Assembly: GCA_028285585.1 (NCBI GenBank)
Contig: JANQOU010000002.1
Span: forward strand, 203,263-267,262
Direction of reading: 5' to 3'
Origin: Acidimicrobiia bacterium
GTDB lineage: Bacteria > Actinomycetota > Acidimicrobiia > Spongiisociales > ZC4RG35
DNA length: 64,000 nucleotides
Shown here: positions 6,158 to 34,160 of the stretch, one piece after another
Numbering within the stretch: the stretch's first letter is position 1
Layout of the letters: each line of letters begins with the position of its first letter
The notes under the pieces: generated by a model
What the model saw: only the letters and a program-made list of their open reading frames with translations
Databases searched by the model: none
Told to the model about the DNA's origin: nothing
Made by a program: the position numbers and the translations under genes

Positions 6158-6844
6158 ATGTGCGGACGCTTCTCGATCACGGGAGACCTCGACTTCTACA
6201 CCGAGTACTTCGGGGTCGACGAAGTGCTCACCGACGAGTTGGACAAGAGCTGGAACGTCGCTCCCACCGACCCTGTGTACGTGATCTCGGAGCGGGAAGA
6301 CAGTCGGCAGCTCACGTCGATGCGATGGGGCCTCGTCCCCCATTGGGCAACCGATACCAAGACGATCCATATCAACGCCAGATCCGAGACAGTGGCCACC
6401 ACTGCGGCTTTCCGCGACTCGTTCGCCCGCAAGCGCTGCCTGATCCCCGCAGACGGCTTCTATGAATGGGAGCCCCCGGACCAAGGACGAACCCCACACT
6501 GGGTGTACAGGGCCGACGGGTACCCGATGGTCTTCGCGGGCATTTGGGCGTCGCGCATAGACCCCGAAACCGAGACCTGGCATCGAACCTGCTCGATCAT
6601 CACGGCTTACGCCCAAGGGACGATCAGCAGGATCCACGATCGCATGCCAGTGGCGCTGGTGCCCGATGTCTGGGACGCCTGGCTCGACCGCGACCTGCGA
6701 GATCCCGAGGTGGCCTCGACTCTCCTCCAGCCGATAGACCCCGACTCGGTGATGGAGCACGCCGTCTCGCGCAAGGTGAACTCGGTCAGGAACAACGAGC
6801 CTGCGTTGCGTGACAAACTCAACGATCCCGAGACACTCTTCTGA
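6158..6844 (+). CDS. SOS-response-associated peptidase (SRAP/YedK/HMCES family), an abasic-site DNA-protein crosslink enzyme
   Basis: N-terminal MCGRF (catalytic Cys2), followed by WNVAPTD and MRWGLVPHWA. Confidence 0.9.
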   Translation: MCGRFSITGDLDFYTEYFGVDEVLTDELDKSWNVAPTDPVYVISEREDSRQLTSMRWGLVPHWATDTKTIHINARSETVATTAAFRDSFARKRCLIPADGFYEWEPPDQGRTPHWVYRADGYPMVFAGIWASRIDPETETWHRTCSIITAYAQGTISRIHDRMPVALVPDVWDAWLDRDLRDPEVASTLLQPIDPDSVMEHAVSRKVNSVRNNEPALRDKLNDPETLF

Positions 6845-6869
6845 CGACAGGCCGGGCCAGGAGTACGAT

Positions 6870-8531
6870 TTGGGCGCTCTGAGAGTCTTCTTCCTCACCA
6901 CCATGCTGCTGGCCGCGCTCGTCTTGACTGCGTGCTCCGACTTCTTGGGTGACACGCCAGCCGGAACCAACGGCTCTACAGACGATGCAACCACAACAAC
7001 AGGCAACGCCGACTGCCTTCGTCAGAGCGAAGCCACGACCGAGATCGACACGGGCACCAACTCGAGAGACGCCTTGGCTATTGCCGGCAAGCTGTTCGTC
7101 TGCGCCGAGCACGTCGTAGTTGTCGCCGAAGACGACCTCAACCAGGTTGCTGTGGCGGCACAACTGGCCGCCTCCCTAGGAGGCCCGCTGTTCTTCCCCG
7201 ACGATCGACTGCCTGCCGAGTTGGGACGTCTTCACCCGGAGCACATTCACGTGGTCGGCGAGTTGCAGATCACCACCCCACCCGAAAGTGAGCTGCTGAC
7301 CTTGACCATGGCCGAAGCCGTGCAAGCAGCAGCTGATGCGCTGGGCGTGATCCAGACGGTGACACTGCCGGCCACGCCGAGCGCCACATCGATCATCGAA
7401 GCCGTCGCAGCGATCAACGCCCGTGACCGTGTGATCACCGCCGAGACCGCCACCGGATCTCCCTCCATCGACATGCGCGCGCTGATCGATGGATTGAATC
7501 CTCCAGCGGAAGCTGCCGAGGTGTGGATCACCGACGCCTCGGATCCGACTGGTGTCCTGCTGTCAGCCGCCTCGGGCAGAGCTGTTGGAGCTGCCACCGT
7601 TGCCATGGACCCCGCCAACGCACTCGAAGATCAGACGATCGGTCAGATCCTTCGCTCGACAACCGCGGCCTCCCGGCTCATCGGCTTGTCCGAGATCGAC
7701 GACTGGGAGCTTGCCCTCCTCACCGGCGGCCCAGAACTGCCGGGTGGAGGCTTCCTCATCCTTCCCGACGCCCAAAGACGCTACGTCGCCTTCTACGGCC
7801 ATCCTGAGACGACCGCTCTCGGTGTCCTCGGCGAGCAGGATGGCGAGGCGACCATCGAGCGGATGCGGCCGTTCCTGGAGGAATATGCGGCCGACGGTGC
7901 TCTGGTGATCCCGACGTTCGAGATCATCGCCAGCGTGGCCAGCGCCGGAGCCGGGGACGACGGCAACTACAGCTTCGAGTGGCCTGCCGAGACCTTCAAT
8001 GACCTCTTCGAGGCAGCAGAGCGGCACGACGCATACATCCTGTTGGACCTTCAGCCTGGACGGGCCGACTTCCTGACCCAGGCCAAGTTCTACGAAGACC
8101 TGCTTCTGCGTCCCAACGTGGGCCTGGCGCTGGATCCGGAGTGGCGACTGAAGCCCGATCAGGTTCATCTGGAGCAGGTGGGCACCGTCACCGCAGCCGA
8201 AGTCAACACGGTCATCGAGTGGCTCGCCGACCTGATTCGGGACAACGAGCTGCCCCAGAAGATGCTTCTGCTCCACATGTTCCGCACATCGATGATCACC
8301 GACCGCGAGTTGCTGGTCGATCGGCCTGAGCTCCAAATCGTGATCCAGATGGATGGCGATGGGACCGAGCCTCAGAAGGACGCTACGTGGAGTCGGCTTC
8401 GCGAAGGGTTTGAAGACGCCTTCTGGGCTTGGGGTTGGAAAAACTTCTTCGATGAGGACGAGCCAGGCCCGCCCACTCCGCTGTCGACCATCTCTAAACA
8501 GCCGACACCCGTTTACGTCAGCTACCAGTAG
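6870..8531 (+). CDS. Secreted lipoprotein with cell-wall-binding-like repeats and a C-terminal TIM-barrel-like (GHL) domain, hypothetical
   Basis: Signal peptide plus lipobox (LLAALVLTACSD). The listed ATG at 6810 overlaps the SRAP gene, so an in-frame TTG at 6870 is proposed. Repeats of the form LAIAGKLFVCAEHVVVVAEDD. Confidence 0.4.
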   Translation: MGALRVFFLTTMLLAALVLTACSDFLGDTPAGTNGSTDDATTTTGNADCLRQSEATTEIDTGTNSRDALAIAGKLFVCAEHVVVVAEDDLNQVAVAAQLAASLGGPLFFPDDRLPAELGRLHPEHIHVVGELQITTPPESELLTLTMAEAVQAAADALGVIQTVTLPATPSATSIIEAVAAINARDRVITAETATGSPSIDMRALIDGLNPPAEAAEVWITDASDPTGVLLSAASGRAVGAATVAMDPANALEDQTIGQILRSTTAASRLIGLSEIDDWELALLTGGPELPGGGFLILPDAQRRYVAFYGHPETTALGVLGEQDGEATIERMRPFLEEYAADGALVIPTFEIIASVASAGAGDDGNYSFEWPAETFNDLFEAAERHDAYILLDLQPGRADFLTQAKFYEDLLLRPNVGLALDPEWRLKPDQVHLEQVGTVTAAEVNTVIEWLADLIRDNELPQKMLLLHMFRTSMITDRELLVDRPELQIVIQMDGDGTEPQKDATWSRLREGFEDAFWAWGWKNFFDEDEPGPPTPLSTISKQPTPVYVSYQ

Positions 8532-19432: not shown

Positions 19433-20680
19433 TTGACTGAAGACCTGACAAGAGGTGATCAGCGCCCACCGCGTCGCGCGGCATACGTGCTGTTCGTCGC
19501 CAACGGGATCTCAATGGTCGGCAACCAGCTGGCCCTGTTGGCCATCCCCTGGTTCGTGCTCGCCACGACAGGCAGCGCCGTCAAGACCGGCATCACCGCC
19601 TTCTTCTCACTGGTTCCAGTGGTGCTGGCCACGTTCTTCGGCGGAGCGTTCGTCGATCGCTTGGGGTTCAAGACCTCGAGCGTCGTCTCGGACATCGCCA
19701 GCGGTCTAGCCGTGGTGGCCATCCCGATCTTGTTCTCGCTCGACCTGCTCTCGTTCTGGCTACTTCAGGTCCTGGTGTTCCTGGGAGCGTTGCTGGATGC
19801 CCCGGGTGTAACCGCACGCGACTCGATGCTTCCGGAGCTGGCCGACGAGGACATGCCAGTTGAACGGCTCGCTGCCGTTCGTCAGGTCGTGGAACGTGGC
19901 GCTCGCCTGCTCGGCGCACCCATCGCTGGGTTCCTGATTGCCCTGATCAGCGCCGAGAACGTTCTCTATCTGAATGCGGCGACCTTCGGAGTGTCGGCGC
20001 TGCTCATCGGATTGGGAGTTCCAGCGATCGAGCTGACTCGCGATGAGGAAGAAGCGGCACCGAAGTCCTACATCCGACAGGTGAGAGAGGGCCTCAACTT
20101 CATCAAGCTCGACAAGCTGATCTTGACATTCATCATGGTTGCCCTGGTCACCAATCTCCTCGACGGGGCACTGGGCTCGGTGATCTACCCGGTCTTCGTG
20201 AACGACCTGTACGGATCATCGGTTGGCCTGGGCCTCATATTCGGGGTCTCCGGTGGAGGCGCCGTGATCGGCGCCCTTCTCTACTCCTGGCTCGGGCAGG
20301 GCCGCTCACTGCGGAAGATCTACCTCGCAGGCTTTGTGCTCATCGGCGTGGCAAGGCTCGTCCTGGTGTTCTTGCCGCCACTTTGGGTGGTGCTGATCTC
20401 ATCGGCGATCGTGGGGATCGCCGCCGGCCCGCTGAACCCGATCATGGACACCGTCTACTACAAGCGTGTGCCCGCAGTGATGCGTGCCCGAGTGCTCGGC
20501 GCTCTCAGGTCGTTTGCCTTCATGGCAATACCGCTGGGAGTCCTTCTGGCCGGATTCGCCGTCGAGGGGCTAGGCCTCCAATTGACCCTCATCCTCACCG
20601 TGGGCCTCTATCTCGTCACTGCACTTGCATTGGTCTTCAACAAACGTCTCGGGGAGATGGATCGCGCCGACGCGGCCTGA
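19433..20680 (+). CDS. MFS transporter
   Basis: 12 TM helices and the MFS loop motif GGAFVDRLGFK. Confidence 0.85.
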   Translation: MTEDLTRGDQRPPRRAAYVLFVANGISMVGNQLALLAIPWFVLATTGSAVKTGITAFFSLVPVVLATFFGGAFVDRLGFKTSSVVSDIASGLAVVAIPILFSLDLLSFWLLQVLVFLGALLDAPGVTARDSMLPELADEDMPVERLAAVRQVVERGARLLGAPIAGFLIALISAENVLYLNAATFGVSALLIGLGVPAIELTRDEEEAAPKSYIRQVREGLNFIKLDKLILTFIMVALVTNLLDGALGSVIYPVFVNDLYGSSVGLGLIFGVSGGGAVIGALLYSWLGQGRSLRKIYLAGFVLIGVARLVLVFLPPLWVVLISSAIVGIAAGPLNPIMDTVYYKRVPAVMRARVLGALRSFAFMAIPLGVLLAGFAVEGLGLQLTLILTVGLYLVTALALVFNKRLGEMDRADAA

Positions 20681-20925
20681 CGGACACGAGGCCCAGACTT
20701 TCGCGTTGAGGATGTTCTCGACTGCGCTGCACCAAGTTGCGCATGACGCCACCTCATGCAGCCCGAACGAAGGTCTGACGGCTTCATCTGCCACCTTGGA
20801 ACCGGAGGTCACATCAAACACTCGCCGTTGCCGCCAATTCGTGTGACTCCTAATTATGAAGGATTCCCTTGACACTTCGTTCATCTCGCACCACCATCCG
20901 AATCTATGAAGGATTCTCTTCACAA

Positions 20926-21513
20926 ATGACAGACCTACGAGACCAGCGGACGGACATCAACGACGTCCGAACCATGCGAGCGCTCGCCCACCCTCAACGG
21001 TTGGCCATCTTGACGTTCCTGATGTCCGGTCCACCTAGGACCGCCACGGAGTGCGCACAAGAGGTCGATGCCTCGGCTTCCGCTTGCAGTTATCACCTGC
21101 GTGAGCTGCAGCGATTCGGCTTCGTGGAACGAGCCGAGCCAACGGATGACGGACGATCCCGCCCTTGGAAGGCAACAGCAGTCAGCTTCTCGGTTGGGAA
21201 CGACTGGACCGATAGCTCACCCACAACAGTTGCCGCTCGCCATGCGGTGACCGAAGCCGACCTGAAGGAGAACCTCCGACTGGTGCGCCGGTTTCTCGAA
21301 GCCTCGGTAGAACTCGAGCCGACATGGGGATCTGCTGTCGACTTCCACACATATGGGCTGGTTCTGTCCCCTGAGGAGCTGACGGAGCTGAATGAACAGA
21401 TCCGCCGCCTTCTAAAGCCGTATCGAGCGGGGGATCGACGAAACATCCCGGACGATGCGACCGCAGTCCATGTCGTCTACCAAGCCTTTCCCCGAGTTCC
21501 CCCGTCCTCTTGA
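20926..21513 (+). CDS. ArsR-family (metalloregulator-like) HTH transcriptional regulator
   Basis: LAHPQRLAILTFLMSGPPRTATECAQEV...CSYHLRELQRFGFV is a wHTH of the ArsR/SmtB type. The start is set at MTDLRDQ. An ATG at 20869 is the alternative. Confidence 0.75.
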   Translation: MTDLRDQRTDINDVRTMRALAHPQRLAILTFLMSGPPRTATECAQEVDASASACSYHLRELQRFGFVERAEPTDDGRSRPWKATAVSFSVGNDWTDSSPTTVAARHAVTEADLKENLRLVRRFLEASVELEPTWGSAVDFHTYGLVLSPEELTELNEQIRRLLKPYRAGDRRNIPDDATAVHVVYQAFPRVPPSS

Positions 21514-22736
21514 CCACATCCGGAGAGCGCGAGCCAGGTTTGTGGCAAAACCGAGACTTCCGAATCGCCTGGTCGTCGGTCTTGGTCAACGACACCGGGG
21601 ATTGGGTGCTCGCAATCGCTCTGCCCGTCTACGTCTTCGTCGAGACTCGATCGGGTTCGACAACCGCAGTCCTGTTCGTCCTGCAATTCCTGACCGCCGC
21701 TGTCCTGGGCCCGATAGGCGGCAGCTTGGTAGACCGATGGAACCTGAAACGAGTGCTTGTCTGGACGAACATAGGACAGGCTCTCGCTCTGCTCCCGCTC
21801 CTCGCTGTCAACAACGACCGAATCTGGCCGGCCTTCATCACCATGGGCCTTCAATCGGCGCTCGTTCCGATCAACAACCCGGCAAGCATCTCGCTCCTGC
21901 CACGTGTCGTCTCAAAAAACCAGCTCACACAAGCCAACGCCGCCTTTGCCGCCGCTTCGAGCATCGCGCGCCTCGGAGGAGCGTCGCTCGGTGGAGTGCT
22001 GGTGGCCTGGGGAGGTCTCGGGCCTGTAATCGTCGTTGATGCAGTGAGTTTCCTTGCTGTTGCTTCTGCCATTGGCTTCATCAGATCCGACACATCAGCT
22101 GCTGCCATTCCGCAGGATGAGCCCGGAGGACGCCTACGAGCAGCATTGAGGACGGTCGCCACCAGGCCACCGCTCAGATCGGTTCTGTCTCTCCATGGGT
22201 ATGCGCAGATCGCGCAAGGGGCGTTCGTAGTCCTGTTCGTCGTCTTCCTCGTCGAGGTTCTCGGTGACGACGGCAGCGGACTCGGGCTGATCCGGGGAAC
22301 GATGGCCATCGGAGCGCTGATCGGTGCGTCTCTGATCGGACGGCTTTCTGGCCGTATCCACGCAACAGTCCTGTTCGCAGCAGGGCTCATCGGAATGGGA
22401 GTCGTTTCCGTTCTGTTCTGGAACGCCCCGCTACTGACCACCGACCTCTGGGTCTATGTCCTCTTGTTTGCACTGTCTGGGCTCCCTGGATCCGCATTGT
22501 CGGTAGGGCTGTTCACAACGATCCAGAGTCGAACCCCACGCCCGACATTGGGGCGTGTTGTCGGCTTTCTCGGCACCACCGAGGCAATCGGCGTTGCCAT
22601 CGGCTCCATCGTTGCCGGGGTGCTCGTCGATCAATACGACCTCGCACCGATCCTCAATGGTCAAGCGGCCATCTACATCACTGCGGGAGTCCTGGCCCTC
22701 TTTTTGGTTGCACCACATCGAAACCGCTGGCCGTGA
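21510..22736 (+). CDS. MFS transporter, probably regulated by the upstream ArsR-like gene
   Basis: 12 TM helices. Its start overlaps the regulator's stop. Confidence 0.85.
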   Translation: MTTSGEREPGLWQNRDFRIAWSSVLVNDTGDWVLAIALPVYVFVETRSGSTTAVLFVLQFLTAAVLGPIGGSLVDRWNLKRVLVWTNIGQALALLPLLAVNNDRIWPAFITMGLQSALVPINNPASISLLPRVVSKNQLTQANAAFAAASSIARLGGASLGGVLVAWGGLGPVIVVDAVSFLAVASAIGFIRSDTSAAAIPQDEPGGRLRAALRTVATRPPLRSVLSLHGYAQIAQGAFVVLFVVFLVEVLGDDGSGLGLIRGTMAIGALIGASLIGRLSGRIHATVLFAAGLIGMGVVSVLFWNAPLLTTDLWVYVLLFALSGLPGSALSVGLFTTIQSRTPRPTLGRVVGFLGTTEAIGVAIGSIVAGVLVDQYDLAPILNGQAAIYITAGVLALFLVAPHRNRWP

Positions 22737-22840
22737 ACACGGTCAGGGGTTTTACCTCGCGTCGCTCACGACAGGTCTTCGTCGTTTCGCGTTGTTATGT
22801 CGACGCGAGCGTTTGCCAAGATGCTCCCCTGCCGGCACGC

Positions 22841-24055
22841 CTAGAGCCGGAGTCGCTCGTAGCGCCCCAATAGCTCCTCCAGAGGGGAACTTGAGAGCGG
22901 AAAGACGGTCTTCGCAAGGGCGTGTTCCACCCTTTCGTAGGCCGTATCGAGCATCACGTCAGCTCCAGGGATTCCCCAGGACTCAACCTCTGCGCGCAAG
23001 TGGGCCCCGGTCACCGACTCAGGCCGCAACACATCCCGATCAACTGGCTGGGCCAAGTGGCGAAAGTGACTTGGGTAGTGGTACGTCGGAATCACGTCAT
23101 ACGCCGGAGCGAGCTGGACGGTTCCGTCCGAGAGATGCAACAGCGAAAGGTTCCGGGCATGTGCATCCGCATTGCCGATTGCCACATTGACGACCAGGAT
23201 CGTGACGAAGGCTTGCATGTCTTCCGCAGGGGTCGCCGAGTTCTCGTAGACAACTGAAGCCAGACGCGAGAGGGCCGTTTTGGAACGATGGCTACTCGCA
23301 TACTTCTCACCGGGGCGCACACCCAGCGCCATGCACAGATCCTCCTGATGTAGCCGCCGGTGCTCGAGATCAGCATCAGGTACTCGGTCGTATCGGTGAA
23401 CCACGAGGGTTCGGATGCCCTCGAACTCCTCGATCGACCAATCCGGGGTGGGGACGCTCGCAAGTCGCAAGACGGCTAATCCCCAGGACTCCAGATCTAC
23501 AAGGCCAGGCCACGCGCTTGGCTCCGGCTTCAGAATGACGGCGGACGGGATGCTGAAGCTCGGGTCGACGTAATCGCCGTTGGTCAAGCCAAGGGGCAGT
23601 TTGGATTGGACGCCTGGCAGAGACAGCCGCACTTCGGTTTCCTTGGACACCCCGAGAGGTGCCGTCGGCAGCCCACGGAGACGAGCGGCAATGTCGGACT
23701 CCGTGAGCGGTGCCGGCTCTTCGCCGAGCTTGTACAGGGGTGGATCTGCGTCGGATTCCGCCGCCACTACAGCTCCGATCGTCTCCCGACCGAGTTCGAG
23801 CAACAGATTCTCCTGAGATCCGAACTCACCCATAAGCACTGCTAGGGCATCACCTTCGGGGAGCAGGCCTTCGACGACGGCAGCGGTGGGCCCCGGCGTG
23901 AGAGTCGCCGTCGTCAGAGGTTGGGACACCGTGAACACTCTCGAGCCGAATCCCCACCGGTCTATCGCTTCCTCCACGTAGGACAGTCGCATTCGGGAAC
24001 GACGCTCGAAAGCAATGCGAGCAAGACGTGTCCCATATAGCCAGAGATCAACCAC
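22841..24055 (-). CDS. hipA: HipA-family Ser/Thr kinase toxin
   Basis: N-terminal LPGVQSKLPL (HipA_N), then HQEDLCMALG...KY and the catalytic VAIGNADAHARNLSLL. Confidence 0.85.
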   Translation of the reverse strand: MVDLWLYGTRLARIAFERRSRMRLSYVEEAIDRWGFGSRVFTVSQPLTTATLTPGPTAAVVEGLLPEGDALAVLMGEFGSQENLLLELGRETIGAVVAAESDADPPLYKLGEEPAPLTESDIAARLRGLPTAPLGVSKETEVRLSLPGVQSKLPLGLTNGDYVDPSFSIPSAVILKPEPSAWPGLVDLESWGLAVLRLASVPTPDWSIEEFEGIRTLVVHRYDRVPDADLEHRRLHQEDLCMALGVRPGEKYASSHRSKTALSRLASVVYENSATPAEDMQAFVTILVVNVAIGNADAHARNLSLLHLSDGTVQLAPAYDVIPTYHYPSHFRHLAQPVDRDVLRPESVTGAHLRAEVESWGIPGADVMLDTAYERVEHALAKTVFPLSSSPLEELLGRYERLRL

Positions 24056-24284
24056 GATTGCGCTCCAGCCGAAGCTCCCCCTCCAGCAGTCGGATGGCTC
24101 GGAGAATCAACAGAACCTGCGCCGAGACGTCGCCGTCCTCGATGCGAGAAAGTCTCTGTCTCGTCGTGCCAAGGGATCGTGCGATGTCCACCTGGGTGAG
24201 GCCGCGCTCCTCTCTCATGGCTCGGAGTGCACTTCCCAAAGCCTTGGGACTCTCTATGCGCCACGTGTGATGTTTTTGTTCCAT
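24048..24284 (-). CDS. hipB: HipB-like XRE-family HTH antitoxin
   Basis: GLTQVDIARSLGTTRQRLSRIEDG is the HTH_XRE motif. An SD (AAGGAG) sits 7 nt upstream of the ATG at 24284. It overlaps the hipA start by 8 nt. Confidence 0.75.
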   Translation of the reverse strand: MEQKHHTWRIESPKALGSALRAMREERGLTQVDIARSLGTTRQRLSRIEDGDVSAQVLLILRAIRLLEGELRLERNRG

Positions 24285-24302
24285 CGTCTCCTTCCGACCG
24301 AT

Positions 24303-24357
24303 TGGCATAATACTGTACCATTTCGGACTGGAGGCGTAAAGGAATAGTTTTATGCCA
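24303..24357. promoter_or_regulatory. Putative hipBA promoter/operator: perfect inverted repeat TGGCATAA-N39-TTATGCCA that spans a TATTAT -10 element
   Basis: AT-rich 60 bp region immediately upstream of hipB. The palindrome arms lie at 24303..24310 and 24350..24357. Confidence 0.4.
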
Positions 24358-24872
24358 TGATCCATGACGACGTCCATTCGATCAGTGAGGCTCATGCCGC
24401 TCACCTCGTCGATCTCACCCTTGTGACCGCATCCACGGAGGGACAAGACGCGCTGACCAAAGACGATCAGACCGTCGAGACAAAGGCCACCACTCGCCGC
24501 TCAGTCGCACTAGAGGCCTCAGGACACAAGCCCGACTTGCTGGTGGTTCTGTCGCTGGATCCAGAGACCCTTCAACCGACACTCGAATACTTCGGTCCAG
24601 CAGCACCTGTATGGCAGATTGCCGGCAAGCCACAGAAGATTGGTCAGCGGCAGGTGTCACTCTCGAAACTGCCCTCAACTCATTAGCGGCTCCCGTCCCT
24701 TCGTTTGGTGGGGCTAAGTAGACAGAACACGAACCACGCCAGAGCCCTCGCTGGACGCCTCCAACACACACTGACGCATAACGTCCGACGCCCTGCCCGG
24801 TCAAGTCGCCGATGTGTGCCGTTGTGCCTGTCTGATGGAACCTGCGTCGTTTCGGTGACGTTCTTGAGGGGA

Positions 24873-26042
24873 ATGAGGCGGTTGACTCTTCTCGCTGCAC
24901 TCGTATTGGTGAGCGCTGCCTGTACGTCAGAGGCAGATCCAGCACCGACCTCGGCCGATTCCACGCCAGTCACCGCTGTTCCTGCGACCACTTCGACATC
25001 CTTCGCCCCGACGCCGACGGACCCGCCCGGCACCACGTCGACATCGTTACTGGTTTCGGATAACGAACCATTCGAGCTGGGTCCGCTTGCTCCTCGTGGT
25101 GGCCATTCTGTCGTCTGGACCGGAACCGAGATGATCGTGTGGGGTGGATGGGGAGACGAGACAGGCGATAACGCATATGCCGATGGGGCCGCCTTCGATC
25201 CCGTTGCGAACAAGTGGAGAGTCATCGCTGAATCGCCCCTTCCTCGATCCTGGTACCACTTGGCTACTTGGACCGGATCGGAGATGCTGGTCTTCTCGGG
25301 ATTCTCGGCCGCTGCATACGACCCGGTAGGCGACGTTTGGCGCACCCTGGCCGCACCACCGTTTCCCTTGCGTCGCCAAGGGTTCCTCGACCCGATCAGC
25401 GGCGTCTGGGCACAAGACACCTACGTCGCTTGGGATTCATTCGACGATCGAGTTGTCGCCTACTCACCGGCAACGGATGAGTGGACCGAGATGCCACCCG
25501 TAGAGATAGACGTTACGAGAGGTGTGCTGCGCTTCACCGGCGAGTCGATATTCGCATTCGGCACAGACGTCAACACCCGGCGACCCATCCTGCAGGGCGC
25601 GGAGTTGAAGGGAACATCCTGGATCCCGACTCCATCAGTCCAGTTCTGGACCTCGGAGAATGCTCACGGGGCAAGGCCGAATCTCGTCGCCTGGGCAGGA
25701 GACCGGTTTGTAGCTTGGAGCGACGGAGGCCGTGGATCGGAAGCGTTCATGTACACACCCGGAGACGATGCCTGGACACCCACCGGACCAAACACGGTCT
25801 TCGGCTGCGAGTACTCGTCATCACCCACTGAGATGGACACGCGAGTGTTTGTCCCATCCTGTGGTGGACAATCGATATACGACTCCCAAACCGATCAATG
25901 GACTCGTCTCAACATCGATGGACTCGGTGAAGGTCGTGACACGGTTTGGACCGGCAAAGAGATTCTCGTCTGGGGTGACACCTGCTGCTTCGGAGCAGGT
26001 GGCGAACCCTTCGACGTCTCCGCCTGGCGATATCGACCATGA
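24873..26042 (+). CDS. Kelch/beta-propeller repeat lipoprotein, hypothetical
   Basis: Lipobox LVLVSAACTSE. Repeated VWTGxEMxVWGG / WxxxP blades. Confidence 0.5.
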   Translation: MRRLTLLAALVLVSAACTSEADPAPTSADSTPVTAVPATTSTSFAPTPTDPPGTTSTSLLVSDNEPFELGPLAPRGGHSVVWTGTEMIVWGGWGDETGDNAYADGAAFDPVANKWRVIAESPLPRSWYHLATWTGSEMLVFSGFSAAAYDPVGDVWRTLAAPPFPLRRQGFLDPISGVWAQDTYVAWDSFDDRVVAYSPATDEWTEMPPVEIDVTRGVLRFTGESIFAFGTDVNTRRPILQGAELKGTSWIPTPSVQFWTSENAHGARPNLVAWAGDRFVAWSDGGRGSEAFMYTPGDDAWTPTGPNTVFGCEYSSSPTEMDTRVFVPSCGGQSIYDSQTDQWTRLNIDGLGEGRDTVWTGKEILVWGDTCCFGAGGEPFDVSAWRYRP

Positions 26043-26215
26043 CAACGCACGAAGCCTCGGCTGCCAACCCGCCCACAACCGGTAGTGCAAGCGCTCGCCC
26101 ACTCCGACTGCAAGACGAGGATTGCCGCGGAGATCGGAGGCTGGGACTCAAGTTGAGCAAACAGTCGGCCGAGCGGCCAGACAGATATTCGGATAATCGG
26201 AAACGTCAGTAGAAC

Positions 26216-26262
26216 GATGACAGACTCGAACCGCCGACCCCTGCCTTGTAAGGGGGGCAATC
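26216..26262 (-). repeat. Degenerate direct repeat of the 3' roughly 48 nt of tRNA-Val. Putative attR of an integrated islet.
   Basis: tgac(a/g)gactcgaaccgccgacccctgccttgtaaggg is identical to tRNA-Val positions 29031..29069 apart from one mismatch. The flanks are diverged. Confidence 0.65.
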
Positions 26263-26339
26263 AACAGCCGGGGAGGGCCCATCGTGACGGGCTTTCTCGC
26301 CAATCGGTGGCCTCCGGGGGAACACGAAACGAACCTTCC

Positions 26340-27134
26340 CTATCCACCCTCGGTGCGCTTGACCATGTACAGGAAGAACTGCCCCTCCCATCTCTTCTCG
26401 ACAACACCGTCGGCAGACAGCCGATCCAGAGTTTCCTTTGCGCTTGCATCGAGGGCCTTGTGAGCCTGGCCTCGATACCTCCCCATCGGTATCTCGGCAC
26501 GGTGGGCCATCACATCAGCTAACTCCCCCACGGAAGTCCACTCCTCACCATAAACGGTCTCACCGAATGTCGAGTTCTGGAACTCCTCGCCAAAAACGTG
26601 ATCTAGCCAGCCACGAAAACGCTGTTCGGCTCGCCAGGAAATGGCCCATTGCGCAGCAAGTCCGGTAAGCACGACGAGATAGATCATGTTGAAGTAGGTG
26701 GACCAACTCGACGGCCCAATGTCAAGGAAGAGTTCTTCGAAAGATGACCGCTGAGTCCATAGAAAGGTCGTGAGAGCGGCAACAGATCCATACGGGATCA
26801 GCACGCGATTTCGATAGCTGGCCACGCTCTCGCGCCGTGCCGTAACGCTCGCTGCCTCCCTGGCTGGGGCGTTTGGGCTTGCGGGTCGAGTAGCAGCTTC
26901 AATGAGCTTCTCTAGGCTCGCCTGAGGCAACGGCACGAGCGGAGCGGGAGCTTTCAGACGTTGCCTGATGTCGAGAACTTGGCGGAACAGCTCTTGGTCT
27001 GTTTCTTCGCCGTCAACGGCTTGATGATCCATCAACCATTCATCGACCGCGCTTTGTACCTCGTCGATGGTGTCTCCGGAGACAATCACGCCGAGTTCTG
27101 CTAGCTCCTGAACCCCGTCTTCAAGATGTCCCAC
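26340..27134 (-). CDS. Hypothetical 2-TM membrane protein with an acidic N-terminal domain and a C-terminal soluble domain, islet gene 3
   Basis: 264 aa. TM1 is VAALTTFLWT and TM2 is MIYLVVLTGLAAQWAISW. No known motif. Confidence 0.45.
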   Translation of the reverse strand: MGHLEDGVQELAELGVIVSGDTIDEVQSAVDEWLMDHQAVDGEETDQELFRQVLDIRQRLKAPAPLVPLPQASLEKLIEAATRPASPNAPAREAASVTARRESVASYRNRVLIPYGSVAALTTFLWTQRSSFEELFLDIGPSSWSTYFNMIYLVVLTGLAAQWAISWRAEQRFRGWLDHVFGEEFQNSTFGETVYGEEWTSVGELADVMAHRAEIPMGRYRGQAHKALDASAKETLDRLSADGVVEKRWEGQFFLYMVKRTEGG

Positions 27135-27436
27135 TCCAGATCCTTCCGCGACCGATTGCTACGAACTGCATACCCCCAAGCTACGCCGATGCTTTAGAGC
27201 TAGAGGCGGCGGAGTAGACAGCTGGGTTCGACCCCGGCGCCCTGGCCGAAGCCCGAGAGAAACGCCGGGAGGAAGCGCTGGCCCTCGTGGAGTGGTTCCG
27301 GGGCCTCTGAGGCCACCATCGGTACCGTCCGAGATCCACGGGAGCCACAGGACGGTACCTCCCTGGCCTCGACGACCCCTCCGGGCTATTCGGGGGCCTA
27401 GAGGTAGCTAAGGGTCGCCCGGAGGACTTTCTTGGA

Positions 27437-28210
27437 TCAGTCGAGGAGTCGACGACGGACCACCTCTTCCTGCCCGAGATGGGTGATCCTGTAGTCGTCG
27501 GACTCTACGAAGCCGTGTACAAACAACCGGGCAACTAGAGCGTTAAGGGTCCGCCGCAGATTTGTACGCATTGTCGGTCGAACCCAGTCTCTGAGATTTA
27601 TATACGAAACGCGTTGCGGCTCCTGCCAATACAGCAAGACCAGCACGTAGTCGGAAGCGGGGAGGTCCCTAAGGATGACCGGAAAGTCGTCCATAACCTG
27701 GATGGCCGGGATGGCCTTGGCCATGATTCCGTCGATGGCAACTTGCACTTCGTCATGAGTGATAGTCGAGTCCTTCTCACGGACTAACTCCGCAAGAACC
27801 CAGTCCATGCAATGAACCACCAAAGTGGCATCCTGAAGACCGGCATCGACAGGTCCCAGATGAGCACTGTCCCTCTTATTCCGGATGTCGTATATCAGCC
27901 TGAGGGTCCTTGGGATGTGTAGACGGATGGCGTCGCTGTGCGAGCCGTTCCGAGGAAGGTTCCCGAAATCTCTAACCAGAGAATCAGAACTTGGCAACGT
28001 GTCCCCGATCGGGGTGTAGGACCCTGTGGTTTCGAACTGGAGTATTCGAAAGACCGCCTCGCTGAAGCGCCCTCCTTCGACACGGTTTGGCCGATGGTCG
28101 CTCCGCGCGAATCGGTCCTTTGCCTCTTGGTATGAGTCGGCCAGCTCCTCGACCAGAACGACTGGCACACCGGAAGCCTTCAGGCCGCGGGCAATCTCAT
28201 CAAGAGTCAT
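27437..28210 (-). CDS. HEPN-like (R-x6-H) domain protein with a C-terminal winged-helix-like domain, islet gene 2
   Basis: LIYDIRNKRDSAHLG fits the HEPN Rx4-6H motif. The C-terminus (YINLRDWVRP...LRRTLNALVARLFVHGFVESDDYRITHLG) is wHTH-like. It overlaps the upstream gene by 11 nt. Confidence 0.45.
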   Translation of the reverse strand: MTLDEIARGLKASGVPVVLVEELADSYQEAKDRFARSDHRPNRVEGGRFSEAVFRILQFETTGSYTPIGDTLPSSDSLVRDFGNLPRNGSHSDAIRLHIPRTLRLIYDIRNKRDSAHLGPVDAGLQDATLVVHCMDWVLAELVREKDSTITHDEVQVAIDGIMAKAIPAIQVMDDFPVILRDLPASDYVLVLLYWQEPQRVSYINLRDWVRPTMRTNLRRTLNALVARLFVHGFVESDDYRITHLGQEEVVRRRLLD

Positions 28211-28817
28211 CCGACTGGCCAGCCAGCCTCAATACCAGCTCCTTGAAGTCATCTTCCCTGCCTGCCTTGAGGTCCACTCGCTTCGACCTTGTGGGCCCAA
28301 GGTACGACACCGAAGGGTTGGCCCTTATGTACCTAGAAAAGTTCGTGTCGGCTGCCTTAAACGCCTTGGCAGACGAGCGGGCGTCCTCAGAAGAAAGGTC
28401 CTGACCCAACCCCAACCTATGGGCGCCTGCCAGCAGTGTGGTTAGCGCGATTGCTCTCTCCTTCGTGTTGTCGCCGAGGTCACGACCTCGGACGTTGAGA
28501 CCTACGCGCTGGCTGTCGGCTTGGTAGAAGAAGACTTCCTTTAGATGCTCGACCGGCACCTCTGAATTTCTCGACAGCTCGTCAAAGAAGCCCCCTTCCG
28601 AAACCCCTAGCGACTCCTGGTCTGACTCTGGCTCCGCCTTCCGAACCGGTTTACCGGGCGGTGAAGGAGGCTTGACGTCGGAGGGTGCAACTCCCTCGGC
28701 AAAGGCGAGCTTGAGGCCTTCGCTTTGCAGATGCTCTGGTAGCTCAGCTGCCAGAACGTCCTCATATGCCTTTCTAAGACGGTCCGCAACTGATTCTTCA
28801 CTTCCCATGCTTGGCAA
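28200..28817 (-). CDS. Hypothetical protein with a Pro/Glu-rich N-terminus and a conserved-looking C-terminal domain, islet gene 1
   Basis: 205 aa. It starts 208 nt downstream of the tRNA-Val 3' end. Confidence 0.4.
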   Translation of the reverse strand: MPSMGSEESVADRLRKAYEDVLAAELPEHLQSEGLKLAFAEGVAPSDVKPPSPPGKPVRKAEPESDQESLGVSEGGFFDELSRNSEVPVEHLKEVFFYQADSQRVGLNVRGRDLGDNTKERAIALTTLLAGAHRLGLGQDLSSEDARSSAKAFKAADTNFSRYIRANPSVSYLGPTRSKRVDLKAGREDDFKELVLRLAGQSDDS

Positions 28818-29024
28818 TTCTAGGCAGTAATCACATTGTTGTCATTCGATGAAGCCGGATGTTGTCGCTCGTCAAGGGGAGCCACGGGGGAGCAAAAACC
28901 CTTCGGGGAAGCACCGGGGAGCACTAGGTGTACGAGGGTCGCAAGGCCCTGTATAGGTCTCGGACCACCGAAAGAGGCCGACGGGACGGGCCTTTCTGGC
29001 CTCTCGACCCGTCGTGACGGGTTG

Positions 29025-29098
29025 TGGGCGTTGACGGACTCGAACCGCCGACCCCTGCCTTGTAAGGGCAGTGCTCTAGCCAACTGAGCTAAACGCCC
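29025..29098 (-). tRNA. tRNA-Val (anticodon TAC)
   Basis: Cloverleaf GGGCGTT/AACGCCC acceptor, anticodon loop CTTACAA, GGTTCGAGTCC T-arm. CCA is not encoded. Confidence 0.9.
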
Positions 29099-29140
29099 GG
29101 GATCGGCCAGATTCTACGAATGGGTCGGAGTTGCGCCCAC

Positions 29141-30265
29141 TCAACCGGCGATCAGATCGCCGAGACGCTCCGCTTCGATGCCGATCTCACGAAGGCGGCC
29201 GGTGGGTGGCTCGTGGAAGCCACAGAAGTAGAGGCCGCGCATCGACGTCTGTTTGCCCGAGGCGAGTGGCCGACCTTGGTCGTCGAGCAGGTCGGCTCTT
29301 TGTCCGAGCAGATCGCCCACACCCGGCCGGTAGCCGGTGCCAAATATCACAGCGTCGTAGCGCTCGGATGCACCGTCGGTGAACACCACTTGGTCACCCT
29401 CGAACCGCTCCACACCAGGGCGAGCCTCGATCAGCCCCTTCTTCAGAGCAGCCATCGTTCCAACATCGAGCAGCGGAATCTTTCCCTTCTTGGCTATCTG
29501 CTCCAACGGCCCCCAATCGGCAGCAGGGATCCCCACCTTGGACACATCACCGACAAGCAGCCAGAGCAACGGCTTGGAGAGAATGTCGGCCAGACGTGGA
29601 GGGAGGACCGACAGGAACCGGGAGATGGTCAGGATCGGGATGCCCAGGATGTCCCGGGGCACCACCGCAGAAGGGCTGCGAACACTGATGTCGGTCTCGA
29701 CCCCGTGTTCGCCGAGATCGAGGGCGATCTCCCCCGCCGAGTTGCCGAAGCCGACAACAAGCACACGTTTCCCGGCGTAGGGGTCGGCATTGAGATAGTC
29801 GGCGGTGTGGATGATCTCGCCGGTGAAGTCGTCCATCCCGGGCACCTCGGGGATCGAAGGGTGATGGCTCAACCCGGTGGCAACCACCAGGGCCGGCGCC
29901 TGGAACACCCCACCTTGAGCCGTCGTCACCGTCCAGTCGCCACCACTCCCCTCCACCGCGGTCACCTCGCTGTTCAGCCTCACATCGATGCCCTCGTCGG
30001 TGGCGTAGGACACCATGTACTCCGCCACCTGATCCCGAGACGGGTACCTCGGGTAGGTGGAAGGCATCGGGCGGCCGGGAAGACCGGAAGCTCCCCTGTT
30101 GGTGTGAAGATGGAGACGCTCGTAGTGGTTGTGCCAGGCGGGGGCAACTGTGGAACCCTTCTCGAGGACAATCGAGGTGACACCACGTCGTTTCAGGCTT
30201 GCCGCCGTGGCGATTCCGGCTGGCCCGCCACCGATGATCAGGACTTCTGTCTTCTCCATCTGCAC
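29141..30265 (-). CDS. Flavin-containing monooxygenase / NAD(P)-binding FAD oxidoreductase (CzcO-like)
   Basis: [14 protein letters not shown] (FAD GxGxxG) and [14 protein letters not shown] (NADPH GxGxxG). Confidence 0.85.
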
Positions 30266-30424
30266 CGGAGACTACGGCTGAGAAAGGGCCCGGGGACCCT
30301 TACCAAGATTGGGTCTAGCTGCCTACTAAATGCACTGTGGATAAATGTCGATAGAGATATCGACAAATCCCCAAGACTGGCCAGCCCCATTCCTACGCTG
30401 GCCCGGAGCCGGTTAGAGAAGCAT

Positions 30425-31354
30425 ATGGCAAAGCGGTCAATCGAAAGAGAAGTCAGCGACGAGGCGATCCGTCAGTACCTGGACGGCATCGGTGTCTACG
30501 AGCTGCTCACAGCAGAAGACGAGGTTCGTCTCGCCAAGGCCATCGAAAACGGCCGCAAGGCCGAGATCGCCCTCGAGTCCGAGAAGGACCAGTCGAAGCG
30601 ACGCAAGCTGCGTCAGATGGTCCGCGCCGGTGAGGAAGCCCGTCAGCACTTCATCCGGTCCAACCTCCGTCTCGTGGTTTCCATTGCCAAGCGATACGGC
30701 CATGCCAAGCTCCCCTTCCTCGACCTGGTTCAGGAAGGGAACCTGGGCCTGATCAGAGCTGTCGAGAAGTTCGAGTACCGCAAGGGCTTCAAGTTCTCCA
30801 CCTACGCCACCTGGTGGATCCGTCAGGCCATCACCCGAGCGATCGCCGACAAGAGCCGGACCATCCGGGTTCCCGTCCACATGATGGACACCATCACTCA
30901 GATGCACTCTGCCGAGACCAACCTCACCAAGCGGTTGGGCCGCAAGCCCACCGATGAGGAACTGGCCGAGGAGTCAGGCCTGACTGTCGAGAAGATCTTG
31001 GAAGCCCGGAAGGTGGCTCCCGAGCCGGTCTCCATCTTCGAGCCGGTCGGTGAGGACAACGCCACCATCGGCGACTTCATCGAAGACACCGAGGCCGCCG
31101 CCCCGTTCGAGCTGATCGCCTCCAAGCTCAACATCGAGAACCTCAAGTACGTGCTGGAGCGTCTCAACGAGCGGGAGCGCACCATCATCGAGATGCGTTA
31201 CGGCCTGGGCAATCGCGAGCCAGCGACTCTCGACGAAGTAGGCCGTCACTTCAACGTCACCAGAGAGCGGATCCGTCAGATCGAGGCCAAGGCTCTGGCC
31301 AAGATGCGTCACCCCTCGACGCCCGGCGGTCTTCGCGAGCTCGCCGTCTCCTAG
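30425..31354 (+). CDS. RNA polymerase sigma-70 family factor (group 2, SigB/HrdB-like)
   Basis: Region 2 [37 protein letters not shown], region 4 [23 protein letters not shown]. The long listed ORF 29120..31354 is an antisense run-through. Confidence 0.9.
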
Positions 31355-31368
31355 ATCACGACTCGTTT

Positions 31369-31407
31369 GTGTGCAGAAAGGAGTACTCCGTACTCCTTTC
31401 TGCACAC
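31369..31407. terminator. Perfect 18-bp-stem hairpin between convergent sigma-factor and whiB-like genes
   Basis: GTGTGCAGAAAGGAGTAC-tcc-GTACTCCTTTCTGCACAC. No clear U-tract on either side. Confidence 0.55.
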
Positions 31408-31439
31408 GCATGGGCACGCTTGGAGACGCAACGCCGCGC

Positions 31440-31754
31440 TCAAGCTGATCTGACCAGTTCGAGCAGTTCGCTGCGCTCCGCCTCCAACGGAAGGTTGGCG
31501 TCTGCATGACGGGGCCTCCCCCGGCCTCTCCGCCGATGGAACGGCTGGCCGTCCCAGAAGATCACACCACCCCAGACACCCCACTCCAGGTTCTCGCTCA
31601 GCGCGACTTCAAGGCATTGCACCCTCACGTCGCACTGTGCACAGATCATCTGCGCCTGGGTCAGTTCCGCTGGTCTCTCCGAGAAGAACAGGTCGTGCCT
31701 GCCCTCCTCGGTACATCGTCCGTCTTCTTGTAACTCTCTCAATCTCATGTTCAT
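31440..31754 (-). CDS. WhiB-family (Wbl) Fe-S transcription factor
   Basis: Four Cys (CAQCDVRVQC...) plus a GVWGG turn. The start is set at MNMRLREL. Confidence 0.8.
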   Translation of the reverse strand: MNMRLRELQEDGRCTEEGRHDLFFSERPAELTQAQMICAQCDVRVQCLEVALSENLEWGVWGGVIFWDGQPFHRRRGRGRPRHADANLPLEAERSELLELVRSA

Positions 31755-32326
31755 CTCAAACCTCGTTTCGTTGATGCGTGCGGCCAATCAAAAAGCCGCC
31801 GGGTGCTCCGGCGGCTTGATCCAGAAGGAGTTGGTTGCTCACATCATGTGACAAGCTGCCGCCGTAGCTGGGAGTTCGGCACGAGACCCGAGGTGAAAAG
31901 GGCGCACGTGCAGAATTCTGTGGAGGTGATTGGCGCGGTGTTACGCATCCTCATCATCTGGCGCTCCTTTCCATTGAGGCAGCCATCTTCTCTCATCGTC
32001 CGTCGCCAAGTCAAGGGAATTACCTGACTTTCTGGTGACATCTAGTGAAGAGCGCGGAATCCCATCAGACCGAGGACCACCAGACCTGTGCCGATGACCA
32101 CAAGACGAAGGTCGAGACTGGCCCAGAAACGCCACAACGCGATAGCCAGGATGATCACAACGATGACAAACTGGGCGACGACGCCCGCATCGGTGGCGGG
32201 CAAGAGCAGATCAGGAAGAAACCCCATGGAAACGGCCAACCAGTAATGACCGCCAACACTTCCCACCATCCTCTGGAAGCAGCCCTTGGGATAGCCTTTC
32301 GCCGCCTGATCTATTGGGGACTGCCG

Positions 32327-32908
32327 ATGTCGGTGCTTGCTCTGCTGTTTCCCGCCCCGAGCCCGGCATCGGGCCTGCTCAGCTACGCGACAGCCCACCT
32401 CGTCGTGCTCCAGGTGGCCACCCTGGCGCTGACGATCCGGCTCGCCCCGCTGACCGATCAGCCTTGGTTCAGCTCGCTGAAGCGACCTTGGCTGGCCAGT
32501 GCAGCCTCGCTGGTTGCAATCGGAGTCGGCTACGCCGCTCTGCTCACACTCGCCACATCAGCAGCGGCCCGCTACGACCCTTCGCTGCAGTTCCTCCAAC
32601 TGCTCTCATCCCTCGACATCGCCTGGGTGGTTGCAGCGCTCTACCTGGGAGCCAGGATCCTGTGGAACAGGGGTGCCGCCACAACCGCCGCCGGCGTGAT
32701 CCTCCTGGCCTGCGTGGCGTCGATCACCATCTACCTCGACCAGGTCGGGTTCGCCGGGTCGGGAGGCTGGATCGTGGACGGTCAAGCGATGATGACCATC
32801 GTCCTGCCGGCCGACATGGTGGCGGCGATTCTCTCGGTGACGGTGCTGCTGTTTGGGTCGAGGACCGCTCAGGCCACGTTGCAGGCAAGGCCCCAGTCAT
32901 ACTCCTGA
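32327..32908 (+). CDS. Integral membrane protein, hypothetical
   Basis: High GC3 from 32327 onward and 5-6 TM helices. The listed start at 32045 has much lower GC3 and is doubtful. Confidence 0.4.
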   Translation: MSVLALLFPAPSPASGLLSYATAHLVVLQVATLALTIRLAPLTDQPWFSSLKRPWLASAASLVAIGVGYAALLTLATSAAARYDPSLQFLQLLSSLDIAWVVAALYLGARILWNRGAATTAAGVILLACVASITIYLDQVGFAGSGGWIVDGQAMMTIVLPADMVAAILSVTVLLFGSRTAQATLQARPQSYS

Positions 32909-33654
32909 AACCGGATCTTCTTCGCCGATCGGAGATCTGAGGGGACCCACCGCTCGATAGCTTTCAGCGTCGCACGTTTCGACGTGGGCCGAAACCACGG
33001 CATCCAACCCGGCTGGGTGAAGTCCGCCCCGTACCAACGGAAGATCTGGCTCAGCTCGACACTGCCCTCCTCACCCCGCACCACGGCACCTGATCGGACA
33101 AAAGCCGCCATCTGATCATCGAGCTGTACGGCGAGATCATCACCAGTGAACGGAGTGCCCCTCAAGGTCGGACAGGAAAGGGAGCCACAGACCAGCGCCG
33201 CATGGATTCTCGGATCTTTAAACCGCCGGATCTTGGCGTGCTCGATCGCAGCCAGGCTCAACCTCTCGCCGGCCACAGTGACGATGGGACGTCCGAAAGC
33301 GCCGTCAATACGCAACACCGACACCGCACCCACCTCGAAGGCCTCCATTGCCAGCTGGATCGCACCTGCGTTGTAGAGGTTGATCCAATAGGCGAGGGCT
33401 TCATCTCTGCTCAGGGCGTCAGGATCGACATTCTCCAGATTCGACACGTAGTCACCCAGCTCAGAGGACAACTCGATGACACCGGGCAGACCCCGGCTGG
33501 CCAGTGCGTCCAGGACGGGCTGGAACCGAGCATGGTCAACAACACCACTCCCCTGCGGACTGGGAGACTTGGTCCCGAAGATCACACGCAGGACTTCAAT
33601 AAAAACCTTGATCGGGTTGGGCTGCTCCACGCCCAGGACAACCCATTCTGACAT
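32869..33654 (-). CDS. DUF547 domain protein
   Basis: YWINLYNAGAI ... HAALVCGSLSCP is the DUF547 signature. Confidence 0.75.
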   Translation of the reverse strand: MSEWVVLGVEQPNPIKVFIEVLRVIFGTKSPSPQGSGVVDHARFQPVLDALASRGLPGVIELSSELGDYVSNLENVDPDALSRDEALAYWINLYNAGAIQLAMEAFEVGAVSVLRIDGAFGRPIVTVAGERLSLAAIEHAKIRRFKDPRIHAALVCGSLSCPTLRGTPFTGDDLAVQLDDQMAAFVRSGAVVRGEEGSVELSQIFRWYGADFTQPGWMPWFRPTSKRATLKAIERWVPSDLRSAKKIRFQEYDWGLACNVA

Positions 33655-33656
33655 TC

Positions 33657-34160
33657 ATGTCTTCCCCGACGGCGCGACGCAATAAGGTTGGCGTCGTGTT
33701 CAGATTCCTCTTCAAAGTCGTGCGAGCCGGCTTCGTGGCCCTGTTTGCTGCGGCACTCGCCGCCAAGTTCCTGCTCGAATCGAACGCCGAACCTCAGACC
33801 GAGGAGATCGACCTGATCGCGATCTTCGAAGGCCAGAAGCTGATCTCGACGGCTGAACCCTTCTACGGAGGCAAGGTCACATCTGTGTTCGGCGGCGTTC
33901 TGCTGGACCTCCGGCGCGCCACACCGGCTCCGACCGGCATCCACATCGACCTCACGGTGATCATGGGCGGTGTGAGCCTCGTCGTCCCTGAAGGCTGGCG
34001 GGTCAACACCACTTCTGGCCTCAACGTCCTTGCCGGCGGCTATGACGATCAGACCCGGACCACTGCCGACGAAGACGTGCCAACGGTCACACTGAAGGGC
34101 AGTGTGATCATGGGCGGCGTTCAAGCCACGACTAAGTCACCTGTGGAGCCAGTGGAGTGA
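33657..34160 (+). CDS. Membrane protein with a LiaF/toast-rack-like C-terminal domain, hypothetical
   Basis: N-terminal TM segment. Repeated IMGGV...V beta-strands in the C-terminus. Confidence 0.35.
   Translation: MSSPTARRNKVGVVFRFLFKVVRAGFVALFAAALAAKFLLESNAEPQTEEIDLIAIFEGQKLISTAEPFYGGKVTSVFGGVLLDLRRATPAPTGIHIDLTVIMGGVSLVVPEGWRVNTTSGLNVLAGGYDDQTRTTADEDVPTVTLKGSVIMGGVQATTKSPVEPVE

Follow-up and report, generated by a model that had tools for sequence, protein, structure and literature searches.

A predicted HEPN–winged-helix protein and its coupled partner gene in a tRNA-adjacent islet of an Acidimicrobiia bacterium

HEPN ribonucleases (RNases) are already known from two-gene conflict modules of the toxin-antitoxin (TA) and abortive-infection (Abi) type. 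In the definition of Anantharaman et al. 2013 (PMC3710099), HEPN domains are four-helical up-down bundles of two alpha-hairpins. Their Rx4-6H motif has a polar N, D, or H right after the arginine, and helix 2 carries an acidic residue, typically within Ex3[KR]; inserts between helices 2 and 3 are frequent. A further described arrangement is the type IX retron (Retron-Kva2), in which a winged-helix (WH) protein and multicopy single-stranded DNA (msDNA) hold a HEPN RNase inactive, together encircling its active site until the DNA is removed by a phage nuclease (bioRxiv 10.64898/2026.07.14.738597). The present analysis concerns a gene pair in 64,000 nucleotides (nt) of an Acidimicrobiia bacterium (contig JANQOU010000002.1, positions 203,263 to 267,262; hereafter the window). 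Its second gene encodes a predicted HEPN domain fused to a winged helix-turn-helix (wHTH), and the pair is read, with moderate confidence, as a two-gene conflict module of the TA or Abi type. No new principle is involved; new are a HEPN family with HEPN-then-wHTH architecture and a new partner protein. The HEPN-wHTH gene and its parts are located as follows.

27437..28210, minus strand: HEPN-wHTH gene, 257 amino acids (aa), ATG at 28210, stop codon at 27437-27439 (from the list of open reading frames)
27713..28171, minus strand: HEPN domain, approximately residues 14-166
28046..28060, minus strand: E51-x3-R55, the Ex3[KR] motif of helix 2 (E51 in 105/105 and R55 in 100/105 family representatives)
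27860..27883, minus strand: R110...H117 motif, at a position that matches the HEPN definition in PMC3710099
27455..27703, minus strand: C-terminal wHTH, residues 170-252, with the invariant G246 in the wing turn

The long open reading frame (ORF) at this position had been picked out by the first-pass annotation, which did not state the strand; it is real, lies on the minus strand, and contains both peptides quoted there (LRLIYDIRNKRDSAHLGP as residues 102-119 and SYINLRDW...ITHLG as residues 202-246). R110 (27881-27883) and H117 (27860-27862) are separated by six residues, RNKRDSAH. As for the mere occurrence of Rx4-6H, it does not exceed chance in this 257-aa protein, since two matches are seen and 2.46 are expected from its 27 arginines and 8 histidines. 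The motif is meaningful because it is conserved and rightly placed.

Placement is given by an AlphaFold2 model built from a 30-sequence alignment (mean predicted local distance difference test score, pLDDT, 87.8; predicted template modelling score 0.68). The model has the four-helical up-down bundle of the HEPN definition, with helices at residues 17-35, 46-62, 93-111, and 123-146. R110-N111 close helix 3 and H117 falls in the loop that follows, which is where the HEPN motif is expected, and E51-x3-R55 lies inside helix 2, in agreement with the acidic position of the definition. The insert between helices 2 and 3 (residues 63-92) is present as well and contains a short helix at 75-83. After helix 4 the chain continues through a linker helix (152-164) into residues 170-252, which combine strands and helices and end in a beta-hairpin, i.e., three helices followed by a wing, as in a wHTH.

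Conservation was counted over 105 full-length representatives with 24-45% identity to the query; the second Rx4-6H match, R33..H39, was left out of these counts. Six residues are invariant (E51, R110, R113, D127, W137, and G246), and at least 90% of the representatives retain F49, R55, R96, P100, H117, E141, and R144. R110 is thus found in 105/105 and H117 in 104/105, while position 111 is N in 91/105 and S in the remaining 14/105. The R, N, and H residues, together with the E and R of helix 2, are the most conserved of the family. With R110 and H117 kept at these frequencies, it is very improbable that the N-terminal domain is a generic four-helix bundle with a coincidental R...H spacing and the protein an ordinary wHTH regulator. 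The earlier HEPN proposal therefore stands, with its four-helix core present in the model and the R/H pair conserved at the right positions. A C-terminal wHTH had also been proposed; it is present, although it is shorter than the claimed 120 aa and spans approximately residues 170-252, after the linker helix. Judging by the model, the protein is concluded to be a HEPN domain with a predicted intact catalytic constellation, fused to a wHTH.

The family is large and lacks annotation. A word-indexed search gives at least 1,167 homologous proteins at E<=1e-3, nearly all of about 255 aa; the named ones are all called hypothetical, and a precomputed Pfam domain is recorded in none. An exhaustive profile search against 50%-identity representatives finds 1,140 clusters, 782 of them at E<=1e-10. 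Direct scans of the window protein against Pfam (E<=1), NCBIfam, PHROGs, and PADLOC report no match, and no existing HEPN model matches it significantly. Among the 105 representatives, the HEPN family Abi_C has sub-threshold matches in seven (best E 0.02), and a few have similarly sub-threshold matches to the MarR, IclR, or HVO_A0261_N wHTH models. PADLOC-DB v2 yields weak wHTH-type matches only (the best, WH_III-A, E 1.5e-4 in 4/105), as do sequence-profile searches of the Protein Data Bank (PDB), with E values of at least 0.05; Foldseek against PDB and BFVD reports no match at E<0.1. According to these sequence profiles, the protein is concluded to represent a HEPN family not yet in Pfam.

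Most members belong to Actinomycetota, including Streptomyces, Mycobacterium-like strains, Rhodococcus, Gordonia, and Microbacterium. Others occur in Chloroflexi, Nitrospira, Bacteroidota, the Candidate Phyla Radiation (CPR; Saccharibacteria and Parcubacteria), and one Xanthobacteraceae metagenome-assembled genome (MAG). A solo haloarchaeal relative of 290 aa, with 29% identity over residues 1-144, is encoded on plasmid PL131 of Natronomonas pharaonis (L048, 4001-4873); it has no upstream co-directional partner and adjoins an ISH6-like transposase. In three loci (L040, L041, and L042) the HEPN-wHTH gene is frameshifted, with an added 1.3-kb insertion in L042 and an open partner frame in L040. 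The frameshifts could be real toxin decay or errors of long-read assembly, and these disrupted genes were not used as evidence of toxicity because they may be sequencing errors of long-read MAGs.

The HEPN-wHTH gene is the second of two overlapping genes, a locus that is present in one copy in the window.

28200..28817, minus strand: partner gene, 205 aa from TTG at 28817, or 202 aa from ATG at 28808 (the public call)
28817..28845, minus strand: promoter-like ATGACA-17-TAGAAT, ending 8 nt before the ATG at 28808; a consensus match only

Translational coupling to the upstream gene, suggested in the first-pass annotation, agrees with the 11-nt overlap of the partner ORF with the HEPN start; in relatives the overlap is mostly a 4-nt ATGA. 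Among 38 loci from species-representative genomes, a same-strand ORF of 180-240 aa ends at the HEPN start in nearly all, and three more loci from named genomes have the same arrangement. This persistence of a co-directional overlapping pair supports the TA-like pairing that had been suggested, and two small, adjacent, co-directional, overlapping genes kept together are also the layout of type II TA systems.

As for the partner itself, a profile of 33 partners from other genomes matches the window protein over its full length (E=5e-32), while a single-sequence search returns only the query. The actinobacterial partner consists of a conserved helical segment in its N-terminal part (..AWxAVExAGLPExxQExAFxEA..), a P/S/A/G-rich linker of variable length in the middle, and a C-terminal domain of about 110 aa. 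The window partner shows these three parts too, its linker being P/S/A-rich. The window partner has no Pfam, NCBIfam, PHROG, or PADLOC family, and 23 relatives also have no Pfam match; a single-sequence model reaches a pLDDT of only 36.8. Bacteroidota and CPR loci have another partner at this position, for which hhalign detects no homology with the actinobacterial type (probability 0.2%). A single wHTH family for all partners was consequently dropped. The partner profile search was dominated by Bacteroidota-type partners, and MAFFT alignments of the window partner with these were misaligned. Histone H2B is matched by the profile as well over about 120 residues, though weakly and not significantly (E 0.27); the low-complexity linker is probably the cause. 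A three-gene version occurs in Microbacterium foliorum (L003, 4857-5378), where an extra 173-aa gene overlaps the partner start by 4 nt; by eye its product resembles the Bacteroidota-type partner, with an hhalign probability of only 0.3%.

The position of the candidate promoter would allow a leaderless or very short-leader mRNA; the consensus scan gives one site with 0.8 expected, which is weak evidence. Upstream of the partner no convincing operator was found: neither the GCTCCCC and GACAACA repeats nor the CATGGA blocks of relatives are strong enough to be called one. In L010-L016 and L041, about 200 nt of non-coding sequence upstream of the partner show a conservation across genera similar to that of the genes and contain recurring CATGGA(T/C) blocks, and a GGAGCCC...GGGCTCC hairpin stands right after the HEPN stop codon; these blocks and the hairpin may be operator and terminator elements, respectively.

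The distribution of domains over the two proteins also admits a different division of labour, in which the HEPN-wHTH protein is mainly a transcription factor or antitoxin-like regulator, its HEPN domain senses a ligand or RNA or cleaves its own mRNA, and the partner is the effector or sensor. The only recognisable DNA-binding domain of the pair is indeed on the HEPN protein, and in classical type II systems it is the antitoxin that carries such a domain. In addition, the partner evolves faster and is of at least two unrelated types. Non-catalytic HEPN domains exist as well (MtlR and nucleotidyltransferase-fused forms), but they typically lose Rx4-6H (PMC3710099), whereas here R, N, and H as well as Ex3R are almost invariant over 105 divergent members. 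The partner, moreover, has no enzymatic or membrane signature. Given both sets of observations, a regulatory HEPN-wHTH protein is considered unlikely, and the RNase-type conflict module remains the preferred interpretation.

The genomic setting of the pair is a small islet next to a tRNA gene.

29024..29098, minus strand: tRNA-Val(TAC), reported by ARAGORN and by Rfam (71 bits)
29029-29068, minus strand: attL-like repeat, the 3' half of tRNA-Val (repeat search)
26215..26254, minus strand: attR-like copy of the tRNA-Val 3' half, 40 nt, 95% identity, 32 nt exact
27227..28905, minus strand: swapped segment, i.e., promoter region and both genes (blastn against L045 and pairwise alignment)
26340..27134, minus strand: third islet gene, 264 aa, with a hydrophobic middle and without family assignment

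Three sister contigs (L045, L046, and L047), found through the 264-aa third islet gene, reveal a replacement of the whole cassette. The window and L045 are 93% identical in the stretch that runs from the sigma-factor gene over tRNA-Val and reaches about 118 nt past it, 95.7% identical from 27226 through the attR-like repeat, and 95% identical across HipB/HipA and beyond. Between these parts, window positions 27227..28905 have no similarity to L045 except for a 72-nt patch at 27336-27404. In the same slot L045 (4420-5612), as well as L046 and L047, encodes a 204-aa DUF5343 protein, a 4-nt overlap, and a 193-aa HEPN_Swt1 protein according to Pfam, the latter with the motif ALRNIIAH in L045. The proteins of the two cassettes have no detectable mutual similarity (BLASTP E > 0.5), and no mention of DUF5343 was found in the searched literature. 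Two non-homologous "partner + HEPN" pairs are thus alternative occupants of one slot, which provides independent support for the HEPN assignment and also supports the pair as a functional unit of the conflict type.

Mobility of the pair is visible in other genera too. Loci of Streptomyces, Microbacterium, Desertihabitans, Micropruina, and a Mycobacterium-like strain are 84-93% identical at the nucleotide level, but only over 1.4-1.9 kb. This stretch takes in both genes together with at most about 200-500 nt on the upstream side and about 20-60 nt on the downstream side; the flanks are unrelated. In 14 of the 33 loci a same-strand tRNA gene is located no more than 4 kb upstream, and in five of them the distance is at most 400 nt (Gly, Gly, Arg, Val, and Leu). 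If 50-90 tRNA genes per 3-4 Mb are taken as an approximate background, the binomial tail probabilities come to 1e-9 to 1e-14. Independence of the loci is incomplete, though their tRNA species differ. Repeats of tRNA 3' ends close islets of 2.8 kb (window), 3.7 kb (L002), 5.5 kb (L035), 7.4 kb (L037), and 8.0 kb (L025). In the window, tRNA-Val and the attR-like copy bracket three genes and no integrase, and this islet is probably what remains of an integrative element, or a satellite of one. The third gene is kept in both cassette variants of the islet and is absent from the other HEPN-wHTH loci; it is therefore not regarded as a part of the module. The islet of Gordonia oryzae (L035) consists of the pair and a tyrosine-integrase fragment that is interrupted by an IS21.

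In detail, L035 (5158-11445) has the order tRNA-Gly, pair, integrase fragment (6750..7361, minus strand), and IS21 (IstB at 7644..8525, minus strand), with a 45-nt att repeat at 10710 and a second copy of 37 nt at 11409, which suggests tandem or successive integrations. Three other readings of the islets were rejected. Logan contig L005, which contains the islet only, is not taken as evidence of an excised circle, since it breaks at the repeats as k-mer assembly predicts. The pair is not the islet's own recombinase, because the predicted fold is HEPN plus wHTH and L035 has an ordinary tyrosine integrase. Genes of 370-430 aa convergent with the HEPN gene are not integrases; Pfam assigns them to HATPase + DUF4325, to Fic, or to nothing.

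Such a setting would also suit an addiction module of tRNA-integrating islands with no role in phage defence, whose RNase kills or arrests cells that lose the island. The pair is strongly associated with tRNA-proximal island ends and att-like repeats, the L035 island holds the pair and a tyrosine integrase and nothing else, and a HipBA module is nearby. Several islets, the window's included, lack an integrase and therefore cannot excise, and defence genes adjoin some loci; furthermore, addiction is a sub-case of the conflict module and not an alternative mechanism. A role restricted to addiction is thus rated as rather unlikely. Downstream neighbours are heterogeneous: among 110 ORFs there are two integrases and a few defence-type genes, namely mad2/mad3 (MADS), PDC-S23, PDC-S01, a type I methyltransferase, Drm-like, Fic, and HATPase + DUF4325.

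The conflict-module reading is based on the conserved operon, its mobility, the islands, the cassette swap, the defence neighbours of some loci, and the retron precedent. In the proposed mechanism, the HEPN-wHTH protein would be the effector, with R110, N111, and H117 together with E51 and R55 forming a putative metal-independent endoribonuclease site. By analogy with other HEPN RNases, this site may lie at a dimer interface (PMC3710099). The winged helix would bind nucleic acid, either the promoter of its own operon (autoregulation) or a cue that holds or releases the RNase. The translationally coupled partner, with its disordered linker, may restrain or regulate the RNase as an antitoxin or gate; on loss of the partner or on a triggering signal, the RNase would cut cellular RNA and growth would stop. 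The pair itself behaves like a self-contained cassette of about 1.5 kb that moves horizontally and resides in variable islets on the 3' side of tRNA genes.

Several observations weigh against this interpretation. No known HEPN, TA, or defence profile reaches threshold for the family, the family was not found in phage records and was found only once in plasmids, and defence genes adjoin a minority of loci only. A DNA-binding domain on the presumed toxin is unusual for a type II TA system. Positions 215 and 220, in or near the recognition helix of the wHTH, vary across the family (K, R, S, P, and T); because the basic residues of this helix are poorly conserved, sequence-specific operator binding is uncertain. 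Finally, the role of the partner is assigned by position alone, as it has no recognisable domain and its model is of low confidence.

A more far-reaching possibility, put forward only tentatively, is that the pair represents a widespread and hitherto undescribed defence or TA system, in which an RNase with a fused wHTH sensor would be gated by a novel partner, following a retron-IX-like logic without reverse transcriptase (RT). Such a system would be one of a class of interchangeable "partner + HEPN" cassettes that replace each other precisely, as 1.5-kb units, at hot spots beside tRNA genes, the exchange with DUF5343 + HEPN_Swt1 being an example. Uncharacterised HEPN families are expected in general. 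Nevertheless, a large family that was all hypothetical until now receives a testable function, and the uncharacterised DUF5343 + HEPN_Swt1 pair is linked to the same niche. The clean natural cassette replacement inside a tRNA islet could help to find more modules by position. Family size, the complete lack of annotation, and this clean swap make the pair a good experimental target.

Outside the islet, the window contains a second TA-type module, HipBA, about 2 kb beyond it and conserved in L045. It comprises a 404-aa HipA-like kinase (HipA_C E 9e-37 and Couple_hipA; within 22841-24446, minus strand) and, upstream and overlapping, a gene for a 132-aa HTH_31/HTH_3 protein. Immediately outside the attR-like repeat lies an indel, a 1.8-kb segment at 24392-26214 that is absent from L045; it carries a 445-aa ORF (24705..26042, plus strand). 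The sigma-70 gene ends at 31354, and the perfect 18-nt inverted repeat with a 3-nt loop that closely follows it (31369-31407) probably serves as a transcription terminator.

In comparison with the HEPN RNase toxins of TA and Abi systems (clan CL0291; AbiJ/Abi_C, HEPN_Swt1, and HepT), the window protein shares the four-helix up-down bundle, an Rx4-6H motif at the close of helix 3 whose arginine is followed by a polar residue, Ex3[KR] in helix 2, and an insert that separates helices 2 and 3. The overlapping two-gene operon, the patchy mobile distribution, and the location in variable islands are common to these modules as well. In contrast to the known families, the window family has RNxRxxxH, with a six-residue spacer, and a C-terminally fused wHTH. 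The window protein is not a member of AbiJ/Abi_C or HEPN_Swt1, as no match reaches threshold, and its partner is neither an MntA nucleotidyltransferase nor another known antitoxin. The pair is, in particular, not a HepT-MntA system, since Pfam reports no nucleotidyltransferase match in the partner and its 23 relatives. The DUF5343 + HEPN_Swt1 pair is similar in slot and layout, with a partner of about 204 aa followed by a HEPN protein with RN...AH; its HEPN_Swt1 protein, however, has Rx4H and no fused wHTH. As for MarR/TubR-type wHTH proteins, the window domain differs from them in having no MarR dimerisation helix pair and in being appended to an RNase-type domain, and no Pfam wHTH model reaches threshold for the protein.

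The closest mechanistic precedent is the type IX retron, which also combines a HEPN RNase and a winged-helix nucleic-acid module in overlapping genes. In the retron, however, HEPN and WH are separate chains and the HEPN protein has no canonical Rx4-6H, whereas the window family is one fused chain with this motif. No RT is present among the 25 commonest Pfam families of the 110 downstream ORFs or among the window genes scanned, and with respect to an msr/msd non-coding RNA, the tRNA is the sole Rfam match in window positions 20000-34000. Judged by these scans, the pair is not a type IX retron. It matches no PADLOC system and, as far as its sequence indicates, would work like a HEPN toxin module.
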